A stretch of DNA of 64,000 nucleotides from Myxococcota bacterium (lineage in GTDB: Bacteria; Myxococcota_A; UBA796; UBA2385): positions 64,001-128,000 of the forward strand of contig JBIJDH010000021.1 of the NCBI GenBank assembly GCA_044344255.1, written 5' to 3'. Positions 11,230-21,105 of this stretch are shown in pieces (the stretch's first letter is position 1; each line of letters begins with the position of its first letter). Below the pieces are notes generated by a model. The model worked only from the letters and a program-made list of their open reading frames with translations, ran no database searches and had not been told where the DNA came from. The position numbers were made by a program, and so were the translations under genes.

Positions 11230-13302
11230 TCAGGTTGTCTCGGGTGTCGAGGGGCGATGCGGGCGAGGGCGGGCGGAGAGATCATTCCCCGTCGGCGGCC
11301 GTCCCGCCACCCACAGGCCGAGGATCCCGGCCAGCACCGCCGGGGAGAGCCCGACCAGGACCCCGGCCGAGGCGGCGATGAGGCCGATCAGCGCGGCGGC
11401 GGCGGGGATGAGGAGGGCCAGCGCGCGCCGCTCGGGGCGGAGGCCTCGGCTGAGCAGGGCGGTGGCGCCGCCGGTGAGCAGCGCGAGCAGGGCGTTCCAC
11501 TCGACCGCCAGGACCTTCAGCCCGGCCTGGCGGAGCAGGCTCTGGATCAGGGCGGCCTCGATCTCCACCCCGTAACGCGGCCCATCGGGCGTCTCGTGGA
11601 TGTCCTCCGTCCCGCCGTAGACCCCGAGCACCACGACCTTCCCGGCGAGCTCGTCGAAGCGGCCCCGCGCCGCATAGGGGACGACGGGCGCCTCGGCGGG
11701 CGGCGAGAAGGTGAAGAGCCCGCCGGCGATGGGGTTGTGCGTGGGGCCGATGATGAGCGCGTCGCCCTCGATGCGGGGCGGCTCCCGCCCGAGCTGAGCG
11801 GCGACCGCGAGCACGCTCGCGTGCCAGTAGCGCCGGCCATCGGGCAGGACCCGCTCGACCGGCGCGGCGCGGACGGTGCCGAAGAAGCGCTCCTCCTTGG
11901 CCTCCACGAGGCCGAGCGCCCCCCGGGCGAGGGCGGCGTGGGCCGGCGTCACCGCCTCGTCCCAGGCCACCCGCACGGGGAGGACCACGGTCACCCCCGC
12001 GGCGCGAAGCTCGGCCACGGCGCCGGCGATGGCCTCGTCCATCGGCGAGGGGGTGGAGAGCGCGAGGTCGAAGAGCACCGCCCGCACCCCCGCCTCCCGG
12101 AGCGCCCGCAGCGTGCCGGGGTGCTCGGCCCGCAGCGCCTTCACGTCGGGCACGTTCACGCCGAGGATGGCGACGTCGGTGGCCGGCAGCGGCCCTCGGG
12201 TCGCGCGCAGCACGGGGTACTGGAGGGCCACGTCGAGGGGGGAGAGGAGGTCGAGGATCGCGACGAGCGCGGGCAGGAGCAGCCACAGGCCTCGGCGGTC
12301 GCGGCGCCCTGCGGGAGGGGAGGGCGCCGCGGCCCAGGCCAGCTCCGGGAGCGGTGGAGAGGCCGAGGCGCGCGGCGGGAGGGGGACGGTGTCGGCCCCC
12401 GGGGGTGGATCGGCCGCCAGGGCGCCAGCGTCGAAGGTGAGGGCGGCGGTGTCGGGCTCGGCGGGCCGCTCCGCCCAGGTCTCCCGACCGTCGAGCACGG
12501 CCTCCAGCGTGCCGCAGTCCGGGATGCGCCGCTCCCGCTCGGTGACGAGGCAGCCCCGGATGGCCGCGAGGGCACGGGCGGGGAGCCCCGGGTTGAGCGC
12601 GAGCGGGTCTGGATACCTCCCCTCCACGACCGCGTAGAGGAGGGAGACAGAGTCTTCCGCCCGAAAGGGCCGCTTGCCGCAGAGCAGCTCATAGAGCATC
12701 ACCCCGAGGGACCAAATGTCCGCGCGGTGATCGACCCGACTGGCGTCGCGGACCTGCTCGGGCGCCATGTAGGCGGGCGTGCCGAGCGAGACCTGGCTGG
12801 CGGTCCGCGCGGCCCCCTCGTCACCGAGCAGCTTCGCGATCCCGAAGTCGGTCACCTTGGGGACGAGCTCTCCGGCCTCGCCTCTGCTGAGCAGGACATT
12901 TCCCGGCTTGAGGTCACGGTGCACGAGCCCAGCCCGGTGCGCCACGGCGACCGCCGAGACCACCGCGCGGAAGATCGTCTCGGCCTGGAGGTAGGGGAGC
13001 CGGCCCTTTCGCAGCAGGCCGTCGAGCGAGCCCCCCTCGACGAGCTCCATGACGAGGACGGGCACGCCGTCGACGTCGAGCACCTCGCTCACGCCGACGA
13101 TGTGGGGGTGGCGGAGGGCCGACTGGAGCCGCCCCTCCTCAATCATCCGCTCCTGGATCGAGGCGCTGCGCACGTGCAACACCTTGAGGGCGTGGACGCT
13201 GCCCCGCGCGCGGTGCCGGGCCCGGTACACACGGGCCATGCCCCCTTCGCCGAGCAGGGCCTCGATCTCGTACTCGCCGACGATGTCCCCGGGGCGTGGC
13301 AC
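11230..13302 (-). CDS. Ser/Thr protein kinase fused to TM-CHASE2-like domain-3TM
   Basis: GEGGMARV, ALK, HRDLKPGN, DFG, GTPAYMAPE; later AGVRAVLFDL, GKVVVLG, TPDGPRYGVEIEA..IQSLL then three hydrophobic helices. Confidence 0.9.
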   Translation of the reverse strand: MPRPGDIVGEYEIEALLGEGGMARVYRARHRARGSVHALKVLHVRSASIQERMIEEGRLQSALRHPHIVGVSEVLDVDGVPVLVMELVEGGSLDGLLRKGRLPYLQAETIFRAVVSAVAVAHRAGLVHRDLKPGNVLLSRGEAGELVPKVTDFGIAKLLGDEGAARTASQVSLGTPAYMAPEQVRDASRVDHRADIWSLGVMLYELLCGKRPFRAEDSVSLLYAVVEGRYPDPLALNPGLPARALAAIRGCLVTERERRIPDCGTLEAVLDGRETWAERPAEPDTAALTFDAGALAADPPPGADTVPLPPRASASPPLPELAWAAAPSPPAGRRDRRGLWLLLPALVAILDLLSPLDVALQYPVLRATRGPLPATDVAILGVNVPDVKALRAEHPGTLRALREAGVRAVLFDLALSTPSPMDEAIAGAVAELRAAGVTVVLPVRVAWDEAVTPAHAALARGALGLVEAKEERFFGTVRAAPVERVLPDGRRYWHASVLAVAAQLGREPPRIEGDALIIGPTHNPIAGGLFTFSPPAEAPVVPYAARGRFDELAGKVVVLGVYGGTEDIHETPDGPRYGVEIEAALIQSLLRQAGLKVLAVEWNALLALLTGGATALLSRGLRPERRALALLIPAAAALIGLIAASAGVLVGLSPAVLAGILGLWVAGRPPTGNDLSARPRPHRPSTPETT

Positions 13303-13325
13303 CGCGTCAGCCTATCGCGGCGGCG

Positions 13326-14009
13326 CTACCGTGGGCCGAGGGCGCCCATCCCGAGCTCGTCGAGGAGGATCTGCACCACCTGGCGCTGCATCTCCACCCG
13401 CCGGGCCTCGGGGAAGCCCATCCAGGTCTCGACGCAGATCCCGACGCAGCCGATGTCGGCGACGATGACCTCGGTGGAGGAGGTGGCGACGGGGTAGTAG
13501 AGCGTGTCCCAGCGCTCCTCGGCCGAGGCCGCCTCATTCAGCCGCTCCACCCCTCGGCCGACGATCGGCGGCATGGGCTCGACGCCGTACACGAGGGTCT
13601 GCCCGAAGGAGGGCCGCACGGCGGGGTCGTAGCGCTTCTTGCTCTCGTGCAGCGTCGCCATCAGGGCCGGGCGCTCGTCGCGCACCAGGGCCATGAAGCG
13701 GGCCGCGAGCCGCCGCTCCCGCTCGGGGGCCGCCGCGTCTCCCGGGAAGCAGCGGTTGAGGTCGAGCCCGCCCGGCGCCGCGCGCTCCCGGGCCCGGTAG
13801 GCCGGCGGGTTCATCACGGGGACAACGAGCAGCCGCCCCCGCTCCGGGCGGGCCCCCTCCTCGATGAGCTCGAAGAGCGCGTGCACGCCGGCCACCTCAT
13901 CGCCGTGGATCCCCGCCTGCACGAGGGCGGTGGGCCCCGGGGCCGCCGCCTCGAAGACGTAGATGGGCAGGGTGGGGGCGAGGAAGTGGACACCGGGAGC
14001 GAGCGGCAA
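13326..14009 (-). CDS. Succinylglutamate desuccinylase/aspartoacylase (M14-like) family protein
   Basis: GIHGDE, DLNRCFPG, LHES, VET motifs; GGAGG before TTG start. Confidence 0.85.
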   Translation of the reverse strand: MPLAPGVHFLAPTLPIYVFEAAAPGPTALVQAGIHGDEVAGVHALFELIEEGARPERGRLLVVPVMNPPAYRARERAAPGGLDLNRCFPGDAAAPERERRLAARFMALVRDERPALMATLHESKKRYDPAVRPSFGQTLVYGVEPMPPIVGRGVERLNEAASAEERWDTLYYPVATSSTEVIVADIGCVGICVETWMGFPEARRVEMQRQVVQILLDELGMGALGPR

Positions 14010-14182
14010 GGCGGCCTCCGAGCGGGGAGCGGAGCGGACCTAACCCCCGCCGCGGCCGCGCACCGGTCGACGGGCGCGCCCTCCCTGCTTACTTGAGAAA
14101 CCAGTTGCCCACTCTCTGGGAAGGGGCAGCCCCGATCCCCATCCTGTCGCCGGAGACCCCGCCTTTGCCTGTGTCACCACCC

Positions 14183-14199
14183 CTGGCACGCCCCTTGCA
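14183..14199 (+). promoter_or_regulatory. Sigma54 (RpoN) -24/-12 promoter
   Basis: CTGGCACG-CCCC-TTGCA matches YTGGCACG-N4-TTGCW; GG at 14185-86 and GC at 14197-98; predicted start site ~14210. Confidence 0.85.
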
Positions 14200-14209
14200 T
14201 AAGTGTGCT

Positions 14210-15556
14210 GCGGCGCCGGGATGACCGGTGGCTCACCGAGAGGCACCGCGGGGAGGAAATGCTCCGCGGGTCGGGCGACCGACGAGCACTTTGACGTGAA
14301 ACAGACCTTTGAGCGGCACCGGTGACGGAGCGCTCTCTCGATGATGCGGTCCTGGAGTGATCCAGCTCGCGGCGGAGAGACAGCGCAGAAGACACCGGCG
14401 ACCTCGACCTGAACCTCCGAGTCGTCGGAGGATCGAGTGGAGGCCGAGCGAGCCGAGGCGCAGCAGCCAGAACCCCCCATCTGCCCCACCCCCACAGGGT
14501 GACGGTCGATCCGGTCGGGGCGAAGCCCGACAGAGATGTCGGGTGACGCGGAGGGAGAGGGCGACAGCGACTCGAGGAGTGGCCCGAACGAAGGAAGAAA
14601 CCCAAGGGAGCATCAGACCGAAGGGAGGCTGCAAGGCCGCCTGGATGGACTGGACTCTTCACCGGAGCAAGACCCTGAGGTCGCGCGGGAGGGAGGTCGA
14701 GAGGCCGAACCGAGCGTGAACGACGAGAGGGGACAAGGGCCGCGGCGACGCGGTACGGCTGGTTGAAGAGGAGGAAGGCTCCGAAGGGTAGACAGCTCGG
14801 GGGGAGCCAGGCGCGCGAGCGATCGGCATCCCGAACGGGCTGAACCCCAGGATCGGCAGCAGGGTGCAATAAACCTGCAAGCGACCATGCGGAGAAAACC
14901 GCTGTAGCCGGGAAGAACGGCAAGAGCGGAAGGAGCGGAGGGGCGGCATCCCCTTCGCCCAGGCGCGGCCCTCGAGAGAGGACCGAGCCCGGACCGGACG
15001 CATGGCGTGATGTCGATGGAGGGGATCTTTGGAAAACCCCAAGAGAGGAAGTCCGCGAGAGCGGCGTGAAAACCGGCACCCCCGACGGGGAGGTGACGCA
15101 GCGCACGCCGAGAGAACGGACCGCAGGATTCGAGCGCGAGTCCGGCAGGCGACCCCGCGAGGGAGCGACTGAACGGAATCGAAGTCTCTGAAGGTGGAGC
15201 GAAGGTCAGGAAGGTTGAACGAAAGGACGACCCGACACACCTGGTGCTCAGGACAGGAAGTGCCTCACAGACCTGCACACTCAAAAGGTGGCAAGGTCAA
15301 AGAGGACGGCTGGGAAGGCCAACGACCAGCGACCTGAAGTGAGTGGAGAATGGAGCCGGCGCCGCAACGCTGGAGCCAGGTACCGCGACCTTGAAGACCC
15401 CGCCAACCCCACGAGAGGCCAGACGAGCGACGCTGAGAGGGGCAACCCGAACAGCACAGGCAGTCTCCTCGAGTCCCCGCGAAAGCCTCTGCAGGGAACC
15501 CCATCGCCACCCGACGCCAAGAAGCCCTCCAGCGCAAGCTGGAGGGCTCTTTTCGT
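14210..15556 (+). ncRNA. Putative large (~1.35 kb) structured non-coding RNA, class unassigned
   Basis: No credible ORF; purine-rich + strand; more than 10 GNRA-capped hairpins; long-range helices including 14569-14579/15465-15475 (11 bp perfect); bounded by a sigma54 promoter and an intrinsic terminator. Confidence 0.75.
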
Positions 15557-15559
15557 TTT
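15523..15559 (+). terminator. Rho-independent terminator
   Basis: AGCCCTCCAGC-GCAA-GCTGGAGGGCT (11-bp stem) followed by CTTTTCGTTTT. Confidence 0.9.
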
Positions 15560-15630
15560 GTCGGCTCGCTACGGCCCGCCCGGCCCGGGGCCGGACGAGC
15601 CCTCCCCTGTGGGGGGCCTACCGGTTGGAC

Positions 15631-16764
15631 CTACCGGTTGGAGATCAGGTCGGCCGTCTCTTGACGGACGTCGCCCTTGCCCCAGTTGTTGTCCCGATTG
15701 GCGAGCTCGGCGGTCTTTCGCGCCTTCTTCTCGGCCTGCAGCTCCACGAGGTGGTGGTGCGTCGTGAAGTAGGGCAGGGACTTGCCGATGATGTCGGCGA
15801 CCGAGTCGAAATTGTGCATCTCGAGGAAGGACTCGGTGCCGCGGATGAGCTCGGCGACCATGTCGAAGCCCTGGAGCATCGGCCCGGTGCAGGACTGCAC
15901 CGTGGTGGCGCCCACCAACATGTGCTCGATGGCGTCGGCCGCGCTCGTGACGCCGCCGATGCCCGAGATGGTGAAGCCCGGCTGATCGAGGGCGATCTCG
16001 GCCACCATGCGGAGCGCGATGGGCTTGATGGCGAGGTAGGAGTAGCCGCCGAAGGTGGAGTGCCCCTCTACGGTGGGGGTGGGGCGCAGGGTCTTGAGGT
16101 CGATGCCGATCGTGCTGAGGATCGTGTTGATCGCGCTCACCCCGTCGGCGCCGCCGGCCTTCGCGGCACGGGAGGGCACGCGGATGTCGGTGATGTTGGG
16201 CGTCATCTTGGCCCAGACGGGCTTGCCGCCCGCGGCCTCGACCACCCAGCGGGTGACCTCCTCCACCATCGCTGGGTTCTGGCCCATCGCCGCGCCCATG
16301 CCCGTCTCGGGGTGGCCGTGGGGGCAGGAGAAATTGAGCTCGAGCGAGTCGCAGCCGGCGGCCAGACAGCGGCTGGCCAGCTCCTGCCAGCGGTCCTTGT
16401 TGTAACACTCCATGATCGAGCCGATGAGGATGCGGTCGGGCCAGGCGTCCTTGACCCGCTTGAAGTCGTCCTCCCAGTCCTCGAAGGGCCGGTCGCTGAT
16501 GAGCTCGATGTTCTGGAAGCCGACGTTGTCGCCGTTGGTCGAGCGCAGCTTGCCGTAGCGGGGCTGGACGTTGACCACGACGGTGTCGGTGAGGCTGGTC
16601 GTCTTGGCGACCACCCCGCCCCAGCCCGCGGCGAAGGCCTTGTTGATGATCGTGGCGTTGGTGCTGGGAGGCCCGCTCCCGATGACGAAGGGGTTCGGGA
16701 ACCGGAGCCCGTTGACCGTGATGGCGAGCTTGGACGAGCCCGCAGAAGATCCAGCGGTGGACAA
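15631..16764 (-). CDS. preA: Dihydropyrimidine dehydrogenase FMN subunit (PreA/PYD1-like, no C-terminal Fe-S domain)
   Basis: PNPFVIGSGPP, GWGGVVAKT, NIELISDR, ELNFSCPHG, KMTPN, GGYSYLAIKPIAL, SGIGG; TTG start after GAGGT. Confidence 0.85.
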   Translation of the reverse strand: MSTAGSSAGSSKLAITVNGLRFPNPFVIGSGPPSTNATIINKAFAAGWGGVVAKTTSLTDTVVVNVQPRYGKLRSTNGDNVGFQNIELISDRPFEDWEDDFKRVKDAWPDRILIGSIMECYNKDRWQELASRCLAAGCDSLELNFSCPHGHPETGMGAAMGQNPAMVEEVTRWVVEAAGGKPVWAKMTPNITDIRVPSRAAKAGGADGVSAINTILSTIGIDLKTLRPTPTVEGHSTFGGYSYLAIKPIALRMVAEIALDQPGFTISGIGGVTSAADAIEHMLVGATTVQSCTGPMLQGFDMVAELIRGTESFLEMHNFDSVADIIGKSLPYFTTHHHLVELQAEKKARKTAELANRDNNWGKGDVRQETADLISNR

Positions 16765-16800
16765 GGGCGCACCTCGTTGCGCGAAGGGAACGAGCAGTCT

Positions 16801-16911
16801 ACACCAATGTCCCCCCCCAACACCAATGTCCCCCCCCAACACCAATGTCCCCCCCAACACCAGTGTTCCCCCCCCACACCAATGTTCCCCCCCCCACCAA
16901 TGTCCCTCCCC
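16801..16911. repeat. Six ~18-19-bp tandem repeats ACACCAATGT(T)C7-9 flanked by a 12-bp inverted repeat
   Basis: Read directly; CGAGCAGTCTAC 16791-16802 / GTAGACTGCTCG 16922-16933. Confidence 0.95.
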
Positions 16912-16934
16912 GGCGCGGATGGTAGACTGCTCGC

Positions 16935-18224
16935 ATGCTCTTCGAGAACGCATGGCTCAACGGTGATCGGGTAGATATGCGGGTTTCGGGCGGCCGAATC
17001 ACCGCGCTTCGGGTCGTCGCGCCGGCGGGCCCGCGCGCGCCTGACCCTCCGCTCGTCCCCCGCCACGGCGAGGAGGTGGTTCGGGACGGCATGATCTGCC
17101 CTCACTTCGCCGAACCCCACGTCCACCTCGACGCCACGCAGCTCGGGCTGCGCAAGCCGAACGTCTCGGGCACGCTCCGGGAGGGCATCCGCAACTGGGC
17201 AGAGCTGCGCGACGGCCTCACTTGGCCTGACGTACGCCATCGGGCGCTCAAGACCATCCGCTGGTACGTCTCGCTCGGCACCACCCGCATCCGCACCCAC
17301 GTCGACACCGCCTGCCTCCCCGCCGTGGAGGCCCTGATCGCGCTGCGGGCCGAGCTCGCCGACGGCCTGCCCGGCGTCATGGCCCGCCCCGTCGACGGCG
17401 GCCGCGAGTTCAAGATCCCAGTCGAGCTCCAGGTGGTGGCCTTCCCCCAGGAGGGCATCCTCCGCGCCCCTGGGCAGCGGGACCGCCTCAACCAGGTGGC
17501 GGCCCTCGGGGTCAACGCCATCGGCGCCATCCCCCACTTCGAGCGCACCACCGACGAGGGCTGGCGCTCGGTGCGGCTGGCCTTTGATCTCGCCGAGAAG
17601 CACGGCGTGGGCATCGACATCCACTGTGACGAGACGGACGATCCGGACAGCCGCAACCTCGAGGTGGTGGCCGCCGAGTCCATCGACCGCGGGATGGGCG
17701 GGAAGGTGGTCGCCGGTCACTGCACGGCCCTCCACTCCTACCCGAACGCCTACGCGGCGAAGATCGTCGAGCTCACGGCCAAGGCGGGGCTGCTCGTGGT
17801 GGCCAACCCCCTCGACAACGTCGTGCTGCAGGGCCGTTACGACGGATACCCCCGGCGGCGGGGCATCACGCGGGTCGATGAGCTCTGGGCCGCGGGGGCG
17901 CGGGTGGCGATCGGCCACGACTCCGTGATGGACCCCTGGTACCGCCTCGGCACCGCCAACATGATCGATCCCGCCTACATGCTCCTCCATGTGGCCCAGC
18001 TCACGAGCGAGCGGGAGATGAACCGGGTCTTTCACACGCTGCACCGCGAGAACCACCAGCCCTTCGGCGAGGTGCCGCCGATCATGGAGGGTGCCTGGGC
18101 CACCTTCCAGTGGTTCCCCGCCGATGATCCCATCGAGTGCCTCCGCCTCCGCCCGCGTGCCCGCGTGCTCTACCGCGGCGGTGAGGTGCACGTGCCCGTG
18201 GATAGCGCTGACTCCGTGCGCTAG
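16935..18224 (+). CDS. codA: Cytosine deaminase-like amidohydrolase
   Basis: EPHVHLD, GTTRIRTHVD, VAFPQEG, IPHFE, DIHCDETDD, HDSVMDPWY. Confidence 0.9.
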   Translation: MLFENAWLNGDRVDMRVSGGRITALRVVAPAGPRAPDPPLVPRHGEEVVRDGMICPHFAEPHVHLDATQLGLRKPNVSGTLREGIRNWAELRDGLTWPDVRHRALKTIRWYVSLGTTRIRTHVDTACLPAVEALIALRAELADGLPGVMARPVDGGREFKIPVELQVVAFPQEGILRAPGQRDRLNQVAALGVNAIGAIPHFERTTDEGWRSVRLAFDLAEKHGVGIDIHCDETDDPDSRNLEVVAAESIDRGMGGKVVAGHCTALHSYPNAYAAKIVELTAKAGLLVVANPLDNVVLQGRYDGYPRRRGITRVDELWAAGARVAIGHDSVMDPWYRLGTANMIDPAYMLLHVAQLTSEREMNRVFHTLHRENHQPFGEVPPIMEGAWATFQWFPADDPIECLRLRPRARVLYRGGEVHVPVDSADSVR

Positions 18225-19424: not shown

Positions 19425-20504
19425 GTGATCAAGTACATCGGCTCGAAGCGGCTCCTCGTGCCGCTCATCGTCGAGGTGGCGCGGGAGCTCCCGGGCACCC
19501 GCTCGGCCCTCGACCTCTTCAGCGGAACCTCGCGGGTGGGCATCGCCTTGAAGGCGGAGGGGCTGCGGGTCATCGCCAATGACCACAACGCCTACGCCGC
19601 CACCCTGGCCCGCTGCTACATCGCCGCCGACCGGGAGACCTGGGCGGAGCCGGCGGCCCGCCTGATCGCCGAGCTCGACGCGCTCCCCGGCCGCGCGGGC
19701 TGGTTCACCGAGACCTACTGTGTGGAGAGCCGCTTCTTTCAGCCCGAGAACGGCGCCCGCGTCGATCGGATCCGCGACACGATCCAGGGGCTCTCGCTGC
19801 CGCCGCCCCTCGAGGCCATCGCCCTCACCTCGCTGCTCGAGGCCGCCGACCGCGTGGACTCCACCACCGGGGTGCAGATGGCCTACCTGAAGCAGTGGGC
19901 GCCGCGGGCCTACAAGCCGCTCCAGCTCCGGCTGCCCGAGCTCTCGCCCCGCGCCCCGCACGGCCCGGGGGAGGCCTGGGAGCGGGACGCGGTCGAGTGC
20001 GCCGGCGAGGCGGAGGTGGACATCGCCTACGTGGATCCCCCGTACAACCAGCACAAGTACCTCGGCAACTACCACATCTGGGAGTCGCTCGTGCGCTGGG
20101 ATCGCCCCGAGGTCTACGGCGTGGCGCGTAAGCGAGCCGACTGCCGCCTCCGCCAGAGCGCCTTCAACAGCCGGCCCGGCATCCGCGCGGCGATGGCGGC
20201 GATCATCGGGAAGCTGCGCGCCCGCCACATCCTCGTGTCGTTCAACAACGAGGGCTACATCAGCCGCGCCGAGATGGAGGCCCTGCTCCGCGTGCGGGGG
20301 ACGGTCCGCGTCATCGAGCGAGACTTCAAGCGCTATGTGGGGGCGCAGATCGGGATCTACAGCCCTCAGGGTCAACGGGTCGGTGAGGTCGGGGCCCTCA
20401 CCAACAAGGAGTACCTCTTCCTCGTCAGCCCTGAGGGTGCAGGTTCAGCCGACGCGGCTCAGCCGCCGACGCCGGGCTCTACGGCGGCCACACCCGCCTT
20501 GTAG
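19425..20504 (+). CDS. DNA adenine methyltransferase (D12/FokI-like class), apparently orphan
   Basis: KYIGSK, DLFSGT (motif I), YVDPPYN (motif IV). Confidence 0.9.
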   Translation: MIKYIGSKRLLVPLIVEVARELPGTRSALDLFSGTSRVGIALKAEGLRVIANDHNAYAATLARCYIAADRETWAEPAARLIAELDALPGRAGWFTETYCVESRFFQPENGARVDRIRDTIQGLSLPPPLEAIALTSLLEAADRVDSTTGVQMAYLKQWAPRAYKPLQLRLPELSPRAPHGPGEAWERDAVECAGEAEVDIAYVDPPYNQHKYLGNYHIWESLVRWDRPEVYGVARKRADCRLRQSAFNSRPGIRAAMAAIIGKLRARHILVSFNNEGYISRAEMEALLRVRGTVRVIERDFKRYVGAQIGIYSPQGQRVGEVGALTNKEYLFLVSPEGAGSADAAQPPTPGSTAATPAL

Positions 20505-20959
20505 GTCTCGTAGATGTAGACCTTCACGGGCAGGTCGCCGAGGTGGTGCGCGATGAGGGGCTTGACCTCGGCCCAATCGAGCGCTCCCACGCCGGTGGCG
20601 AGGCGGGGCAGGGCGACGCTCTTATAGCCCTCGCGCTCGATCTCCAGGCGCAGGGCCCGGAGCGCGTGGTTCACGGAGGAGAGCTTGGCCTTGCCGCCGT
20701 GGCCGGCGTGCCCGTGGGCGTCGGAGGGCTCCTGGGTGAAGACGGAGAGCACGGTGCGGGCGCCCGGGCCACCCCAGCTCCAGAGCCCGCCCACCACGGC
20801 CTTGTGGGCGTGGCAGTAATGACGGAACTCCTTGTAGAGGGCCGGCCACTGGTTGCGCATCGCGAGCGCGAGGCCTTGATCGAAATTGTCGTAGGGGGCG
20901 ACCCCATGGGCGATGGCGTCGGCCTTGCTGAGGAGGATGTCGCCGGTGACGTCGTGCAT
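20459..20959 (-). CDS. Macro domain (ADP-ribose binding/hydrolase) protein
   Basis: GDILLS, GLALAMRNQWP, SVALPRLATGVGALDW; AAGGA RBS; alternative start 20977. Confidence 0.85.
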   Translation of the reverse strand: MHDVTGDILLSKADAIAHGVAPYDNFDQGLALAMRNQWPALYKEFRHYCHAHKAVVGGLWSWGGPGARTVLSVFTQEPSDAHGHAGHGGKAKLSSVNHALRALRLEIEREGYKSVALPRLATGVGALDWAEVKPLIAHHLGDLPVKVYIYETYKAGVAAVEPGVGG

Positions 20960-21090
20960 GTGGGTGTGTTCCTTCATCGAGATGGGCTTTTTCGCACAGT
21001 CGCCGGGCGCCTGAGGTGCTCGGTGGGGCGAGAACGACGGTTGAACCTTTGAAAATCCGGCGTGCTCGCTTTACTGTGTGGGGCTGAGGC

Positions 21091-21105
21091 GCAACAACCG
21101 TGCCA
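21091..21105 (-). promoter_or_regulatory. Sigma54 -24/-12 promoter for the macro domain gene
   Basis: Minus strand TGGCACG-GTTG-TTGC. Confidence 0.75.

Follow-up and report, generated by a model that had tools for sequence, protein, structure and literature searches.

In the 64,000-nucleotide stretch of DNA analysed here (the window), a gene of the AstE/AspA family and one of the dihydroorotate/dihydropyrimidine dehydrogenase family, both on the minus strand, are separated by 1.5 kb. What is encoded in this gap, and what would its product do? On the plus strand it is rich in A and poor in U (AT skew 0.4-0.5), and a sequence-only reading had placed in it a large structured RNA, transcribed as a unit of about 1.35 kb, in which nested helices close an inner domain of about 1 kb. 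The first part of this proposal is borne out. The gap almost certainly holds a stand-alone gene for a stable, abundant and highly structured noncoding RNA from a family that is not in Rfam, as supported by a conserved promoter, pairing of the RNA ends, a terminator, nested covariation and RNA data with empty flanks. A protein-coding gene was rejected for the region: substitutions number 120/131/131 by position modulo 3, i.e. they have no codon periodicity, and 11 of 13 indels are not multiples of three and would shift the frame. The transcription unit has the following parts.

14094..14111, plus strand: upstream palindrome of the TGGGAA-N6-TTCCCA type, likely activator site 1
14117..14135, plus strand: second copy of the palindrome, preserved in all three paralogues
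14184..14199, plus strand: sigma-54-type -24/-12 promoter, TGGCACG-N4-TTGCA, conserved at the same place in homologues
14210..15553, plus strand: noncoding RNA of about 1,344 nt, its strand predicted from promoter and terminator
14286..14297, plus strand: putative boxA-like element 1, GCACTTTGACGT (family consensus TCTTTGACGT), after a hairpin near the 5' end
15024..15037, plus strand: putative boxA-like element 2, GATCTTTGGAAAAC, conserved in the order and resembling the rrn boxA of the genome
15523..15553, plus strand: intrinsic terminator hairpin and U run, with 11 of 11 pairs retained and 2 double changes, in both paralogues

The promoter, which fits the sigma-54 consensus, is the sole exact match within the window, and the +1 was set at 14210 because of its spacing from this element. 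The palindrome likely serves as the site of a sigma-54 enhancer-binding protein; of 36 copies with a sigma-54 promoter, 20 have it, usually 59-62 nt before the promoter, as against 12 of 500 random 130-mers. A second sigma-54-like box, with one mismatch, lies at window positions 21090-21105 (minus strand), upstream of a gene at 20459-20977 that by eye resembles a macro-domain gene. At the other end of the RNA, the terminator may also halt the convergent dehydrogenase gene, because an A-rich run is found on the 5' side of its hairpin (window 15519-15553). Between the dehydrogenase gene and the next gene, the ORF translations reveal short G-rich and C-rich tandem repeats at about 16790-16930.

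The conserved words at 14286-97 and 15024-37 are probably boxA sites. In E. coli, boxA recruits Nus factors that block Rho, as described in PMC5725501, and NusB is present in the host genome. The window copy departs from GYTCTTTAANA, the consensus given in the same text, which is gamma-proteobacterial; the word CGGTCTTTGAAAAC is found in the three 16S leaders of the host genome and TTCTTTGAAAC in distant family members, while boxA was not found in Polyangia-type copies. The three 16S leaders lie at the ends of contigs C46, C52 and C59 and have several tandem TTGAC-type promoters together with a boxA-like word. The RNA shares with rRNA operon transcripts the boxA-like sites both near the 5' end and inside, a closing stem that joins end to end, several copies per genome and, in distant members, rRNA-like sigma-70 promoters; it differs from them in having no rRNA similarity and no sign of an excised mature piece.

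The genome has three copies of the gene. The two further copies are 73-78% identical and stand in tandem on contig C29, one of them crossing the contig end, and promoter, palindrome and terminator are kept in all three, the terminator with compensatory changes. These extra copies occupy C29:10-1132 and C29:3312-4729 (minus strand) and C42:149365-149755, with a metallophosphoesterase gene between the tandem copies; contigs C29 and C42 likely join, because their ends overlap by 127 nt inside the third copy.

Relatives of the RNA were detected by BLAST in 15 of 40 related genomes. Among 151 genomes of the order, 76 gave hits with a 92-position covariance model of the core. A second covariance model had hits in 41 of 151 genomes of the phylum Myxococcota and in 16 of 121 genomes of the class of a record titled Kofleriaceae, a sample that shares genomes with that of the phylum. 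There are 1-6 core matches per genome, and the copies are about 1.0-2.5 kb long. In some copies, core-model hits only 80-670 nt apart (G071:C1 and G086:C231) suggest an internal duplication of the core. Full copies occur in records titled Myxococcota or Deltaproteobacteria UBA2385, UBA2957 and SAT32, among others. Among 38 pattern hits in genome collections, 19 have a strong profile match and the remainder look like chance; two weak model hits (L253 and L254) were rejected, as they sit within apparent coding sequence. Scans of 101 genomes from the phylum to which a Desulfatibacillum record belongs, and of 5 unrelated genomes, detected no copy, though they score only 28-150 candidates per genome and may miss distant copies. 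In the phylum of an Acidobacteria record, 1 of 81 genomes was positive, with a full copy of about 1.05 kb and a sigma-70-type promoter (L255, G560:C438) that would reflect either transfer or a binning error. Full copies of the order type were also seen in records titled Alphaproteobacteria, Oligoflexia or Enterobacterales (L053, L058, L060, L063 and L050), titles which may be mislabels. The distribution is patchy, since the RNA was not found in 11 of 21 genomes of its own family, nor in 5 rescanned genomes that are at least 90% complete, and hence it is not essential.

Most copies of the order and of the Kofleriaceae class have a sigma-54 box, and the others have sigma-70-type boxes; by loose patterns, 27 of 53 loci were assigned to sigma-54 and 7 of 53 to the sigma-70 type. 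No conserved neighbour gene appears among the 84 flanking frames scanned, and neighbours differ between copies: 3 related copies have a prepilin peptidase upstream, and in one checked copy (L027) rho is divergent. In one clade (L027, L038, L050 and L054), words resembling the DnaA-box consensus flank the upstream palindrome.

Freshwater RNA data contain the transcript. Between 70 and 95% of sampled words are present in seven RNA runs from four freshwater studies, and four runs, one per study, were compared with the 6-kb stretch 12001-18000 of the window. Long RNA contigs (depth 21-171) cover 14218-15553 only, and the flanking genes are empty except for short stray pieces; being assembled contigs, they carry no information on strand, exact ends or level. 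One single contig spans 14225-15509, and another stops at 15553, the end of the U run. The released or circular form of about 1.0 kb that had been predicted was not seen: contigs continue across 14497 without a break, and no back-joint or circle exists among the contigs of the 4 runs, which drop rare forms and which a minor processed form could escape.

A 36-nt pattern retrieved at least 120 metagenome stretches, and 80 of the matches listed had full DNA. Among these listed matches, 54 of 80 contigs start at most 80 nt before the boxA-like word, without a promoter, 39 of 80 terminate at most 90 nt from the last helix, and 29 of 80 have both ends at the ends of the RNA; the promoter is carried by only 5 of 80. 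These contigs are thus shaped like transcripts and probably originate in RNA libraries. Neither circular permutation nor a terminal end-to-end repeat was found in any of the 80 transcript-like contigs among the matches listed. In one contig (L131:1563-1625) the terminus is a 63-nt repeat of an internal stretch, which looks like an assembly artefact and not like an end-to-end circle.

Comparison of homologues gives the RNA the following architecture.

14212..14232, plus strand: 5' strand of the terminal helix P1, pairing with 15503-18 (P 1.00 at the 8 outer pairs tested)
14298..14597, plus strand: variable 5' insertion, 44-1,056 nt across 48 copies measured, which contains the 5' arms of helices H1-H4 (see below)
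14601..14788, plus strand: domain closed by repeat loop 1 (14604-06/14783-85), with covariation above null
14845..15024, plus strand: most conserved core, with repeat loop 3 (14849-51/15018-20), a T-loop-like hairpin (14859-78) and two further stems
15038..15496, plus strand: 3' domain, closed by 15038-48/15486-96 (repeat loop 5), with covarying inner helices
15190-92/15411-13, 15208-10/15393-95 and 15267-69/15299-301, plus strand: repeat loops 6, 7 and 8
15503..15518, plus strand: 3' strand of P1, which takes up the 3' arm of H1

The alignment behind this model holds 100 of the 103 copies collected, two near-duplicates and one very long outlier having been dropped, at a mean identity of 56%. 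Conservation inside the 36-nt pattern is by construction, because most aligned copies came from that pattern; of the 923 well-filled columns beyond it, 91 reach a conservation of 97% or more. Sixteen pairs score higher than any in 144 tree-aware null alignments, and 50 pairs lie above the level of E~1. Of the latter, 42 are Watson-Crick consistent and all 42 are nested, and no crossing (pseudoknot or kissing) Watson-Crick pair is among the 50, a threshold at which invariant contacts would be missed.

When 24 copies were tried, 20 had a duplex of the 5' end with the 3' end just before the terminator, with compensatory changes, and in 19 of these it begins at +1 or +2; in the remaining 4 the script did not locate the 3' end. 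The 14601-14788 domain includes the helix 14656-64/14760-69, repeat loop 2 (14677-79/14725-27) and two GNRA hairpins, and the core contains a hairpin (14899-929) that carries repeat loop 4 and a second T-loop-like loop. In a separate MAFFT alignment of the core (40 sequences), double changes were found at 34 of 42 pairs and 92% of cells were paired, with 0 of 500 shuffles as high. The 100-copy alignment has G.A/A.G and G.G/U.A covariation in the core. In the 3' domain are a local helix (15062-68/15104-10), the helix 15126-34/15468-76 and repeat loops 6-8. Its closing helix is 99-100% paired at 7 of 9 columns (74-77 sequences) and misses the strict covariation threshold because it is nearly invariant; this helix rests on comparison, as thermodynamic folding alone does not recover it (P 0.00-0.26).

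How does this fold relate to the six helices of the sequence-only reading? All six arm pairs exist in the sequence and in nested order. H1 (14497-506/15503-12) has one mismatch (A.C) and one G.U, as had been described, and H3 (14569-79/15465-75; 11 bp), H4 (14580-84/15417-21) and H6 (15062-68/15104-10) are perfect. H2 (14548-54/15486-92) includes one G.U that had gone unmentioned. The two mid-range helices belong to the fold: H5 (14655-65/14759-70), the helix noted above in the 14601-14788 domain, has one bulge, is 84-99% paired at 6 of 7 columns and has 5 pairs above threshold, and H6 is a local stem (P 1.00) for which the paralogues show 2 double changes. The closure of a 1,016-nt domain by H1-H4 is not supported. 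Their mean pair probabilities of 0.66, 0.75, 0.76 and 0.13 apply only to an isolated 14497-15512 and drop to 0.00 once the whole RNA is folded, and forcing H1-H3 costs 21 kcal/mol, compared with 12 for the comparative set. Compensatory changes, which the reading had called for, are absent, with no covariation in H1-H4 (of 33 pairs, 19 could be scored, and the highest score was 6 where the threshold is 47.5). Alignable columns in the 100 homologues are mostly 14-67% paired, and two H4 columns are paired in 74% and 95% with no compensatory change. Moreover, the 3' arms of H1-H4 have other conserved partners, namely P1, 15038-48 and 15126-34, and across 41 copies the 5' insertion shows no excess of pairing with the 3' end: z averages -0.17, lies below -2 in 3 copies and is +1.24 for the copy in the window. 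Within the insertion a local hairpin, 14487-91/14497-501, has P 0.91. Shuffling was also proposed as a check. The region as a whole folds better than shuffles (z -5.2; 91 shuffles). H3 by itself is borderline: among 300 dinucleotide shuffles, perfect helices of at least 11 bp with arms at least 300 nt apart arise in 16 when 14497-15512 is shuffled and in 48 when 14210-15553 is. The RNA ends are indeed brought together, but at 14212-32 with 15503-18 and not at the ends that had been named. The paralogues keep 8 of 9 pairs of H1, 7 of 7 of H2 and 8 of 11 of H3, without double changes, and a lineage-specific alternative fold may therefore exist.

The most conspicuous element of the fold is a 3x3 internal loop, 5'-YGNRG-3' opposite 5'-CRNGR-3', which is found on eight helices. 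At loops 1-4, 92-98 of about 93-100 copies have G.G as the first pair; A.A stands there in a few cases, including loop 8 of the window. The third pair is A.A or G.G, and both sides change jointly (74 GG, 21 AA and 1 GA; 68 AA, 31 GG and 1 GA); these joint swaps indicate that the shape is selected. G.G and A.A pairs may be isosteric in the HIV Rev element, for which a literature search gave no confirmation. An alignment-free count, in which some hits are cross-pairings of the same strands, gave 10 motifs in the window RNA, whereas its shuffles have 2.1 and none of 60 reaches 10. For 11 further copies, some of them distant, the count is 8-14, and for RNase P and flanks it is 0-3. The enrichment is weak in some distant copies (2 vs 0.6 in L234; 9 vs 4.6 in L008). 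C-G runs adjoin each repeat loop, the loops of the RNA are A-rich, and GNRA loops are conserved.

Because one shape-selected site recurs eight or more times, we favour the reading that the RNA is a multivalent scaffold or sponge for one protein, to which we give an even chance. An activator on the upstream palindrome would then cause sigma-54 polymerase to make the RNA, boxA would recruit Nus factors such that the long untranslated RNA escapes Rho as rRNA does, and P1 and the terminator would guard the ends. The folded RNA would display at least eight copies of the 3x3 loop, with outer pairs G.G and A.A or G.G, each binding one copy of the same protein, in the manner of CsrB but through a different site and a different protein. 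Packing of the core would fall to the GNRA and T-loop-like hairpins, and the long insertions would be dispensable peripheral helices. The sponge RNAs CsrB/RsmZ and CrcZ present GGA in hairpin loops or an A-rich single strand, and CrcZ has a sigma-54 promoter; they too are stand-alone RNAs that carry one site many times, whereas the present site is a paired 3x3 purine loop. CsrB-type sites are not enriched in the RNA (GGA 55 vs 54.3 expected; ANGGA 15 vs 12.9; CANGGA 1 vs 2.7). A short CsrA-like gene is present in the genome (C36:160602-160736), and 45 of the 151 order genomes have such a gene, but CsrA does not track the RNA: in family f4 the RNA is found in 30 of 46 genomes and CsrA in 0 of 46, in f27 in 8 of 9 and 0 of 9, and in f17 in 0 of 15 and 14 of 15, respectively. 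The host genome (95% complete) has no match to Hfq (PF17209), nor to Ro60 (TROVE, PF05731), the partner of bacterial Y RNA. CsrA, Hfq and Ro60 were rejected as partners on these grounds of missing co-occurrence or missing gene match, and neither the neighbours, which are unrelated between copies, nor CsrA co-occurrence gives a clue to the protein.

The repeated loop could instead serve RNA-RNA packing or metal binding. GOLLD, ROOL and OLE are likewise large, abundant, multi-junction bacterial RNAs with variable regions around a conserved core (PMC12286853 and PMC5737381), and they form RNA-only assemblies according to the former. By this precedent the loops would dock GNRA and A-rich loops, and the RNA would fold or oligomerise into a cage without protein, as in GOLLD and ROOL. 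We consider this unlikely, although the size and abundance of the RNA, its A-rich loops, its conserved GNRA loops and the C-G runs beside the repeat loops all speak for it. No crossing Watson-Crick pair reached threshold, though GOLLD and ROOL have such pairs, and the eight repeat loops outnumber the conserved GNRA loops. A link to phages or tRNA is missing as well: the window has no tRNA, unlike the prophage or tRNA-island context of GOLLD/ROOL, viral collections gave 6 chance loci that do not match the model and 0 and 0 in other scans, and phage and plasmid collections were empty. The RNA (about 1.0-2.5 kb) is also longer than GOLLD (>800 nt) and ROOL (581 nt on average) as given in the same texts, and it differs from GOLLD, ROOL and OLE in being built from a single repeated loop and in having no Rfam match. 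In Rfam 15 no hit reached the gathering score in the window, 6 weak hits at E-value level lay far below it (three of them on the terminator), and 12 homologue loci gave nothing at E<=0.1, with no match to RNase P, T-box, group I/II or HEARO.

Two T-loop-like hairpin loops (14865-69 and 14911-15) were recognised from sequence and covariation, by the definition in PMC4810234. The first is UGCAA with a 3-nt bulge, and its closing G.A/A.G covaries; the second has U.A/G.G covariation at positions 1 and 5. The word GUGCAACAGA, frequent in the homologues, occurs also in the genome's RNase P, and RNase P RNA (RF00010) resembles the present RNA in its end-to-end P1, T-loop-like words and long peripheral insertions. 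On an improbable reading the RNA is tRNA-binding or catalytic, and the two hairpins would interlock to hold the elbow of a tRNA in the way known from RNase P, T-box leaders and the L1 stalk. Neither RNase P nor T-box is matched in Rfam, and a normal RNase P, the genome's only RF00010 match (contig C74, 243 bits), lies away from this locus. Covariation linking the two loops does not rise above null, other than within hairpin 2, and T-loops also serve ordinary packing.

Pxr of Myxococcus has tandem paralogues. It is, like the present locus, a sigma-54 RNA gene in Myxococcota, but a small RNA of three stem-loops (PMC10217877), whereas the present RNA has no Rfam hit. That promoter in a myxobacterial lineage, together with a C-rich loop (14470-96) in this genus, would fit a base-pairing regulator or small-RNA precursor in the manner of Pxr or staphylococcal RNAIII/Ssr42. 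Such a role is hard to reconcile with conservation that extends over a kilobase of nested structure without a seed focus, with the position of the C-rich part inside the variable insertion, and with the absence of an Rfam hit and of an Hfq match, and we hold it to be quite improbable. Several copies per genome, tandem copies and changing neighbours recall a non-autonomous mobile element or intron remnant, a very improbable origin given that each copy has its own promoter and terminator, that the 84 flanking frames contain 0 reverse transcriptase, transposase or integrase, and that no group I/II or HEARO match exists. Release of a mature or circular RNA of about 1,016 nt, closed by H1-H4, from a 1.35-kb precursor has scarcely any likelihood left: helices that form in the isolated piece and are mostly retained in paralogues (H1-H3), and shortest family members of about 1.0 kb, are outweighed by their energetic cost in the full RNA, by the missing covariation, excess pairing, joint and break, and by a close variant that alters G14582 with no partner change listed at 15419.

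The RNA is undescribed in the literature searched, a scope that leaves aside subscription papers and supplements; a fragment could sit in the motif lists of the PMC5737381 supplement, in preprint supplements (10.1101/2025.09.11.675593 and 10.1101/2024.10.03.616574) or in the M. xanthus ncRNA survey of Whitworth and Swain (2020). It is apparently an undescribed class of kilobase-scale bacterial noncoding RNA. PMC5737381 (2017) names only rRNA, GOLLD and group II introns as longer and more complex than the 581-nt ROOL. Bacterial RNAs of large size and elaborate structure are rare, and every class so far has meant new chemistry or architecture. The present family spans 1.0-2.5 kb with about 100 near-invariant columns and is carried by about half of the sampled genomes in an environmental order, and RNA runs yield contigs of it where they yield none of the adjacent mRNAs. 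With the repeated G.G/A.A loop it offers a defined and directly testable site, and the shortest copies (about 1.0 kb; L234 and L255) are ready targets for cryo-EM. On balance it seems somewhat probable that this kilobase class of structural RNA, which exceeds GOLLD in length and combines rRNA-like transcription signals with one repeated non-canonical loop, organises a new ribonucleoprotein particle or RNA cage in much of Myxococcota, possibly one that engages tRNA through its paired T-loops.
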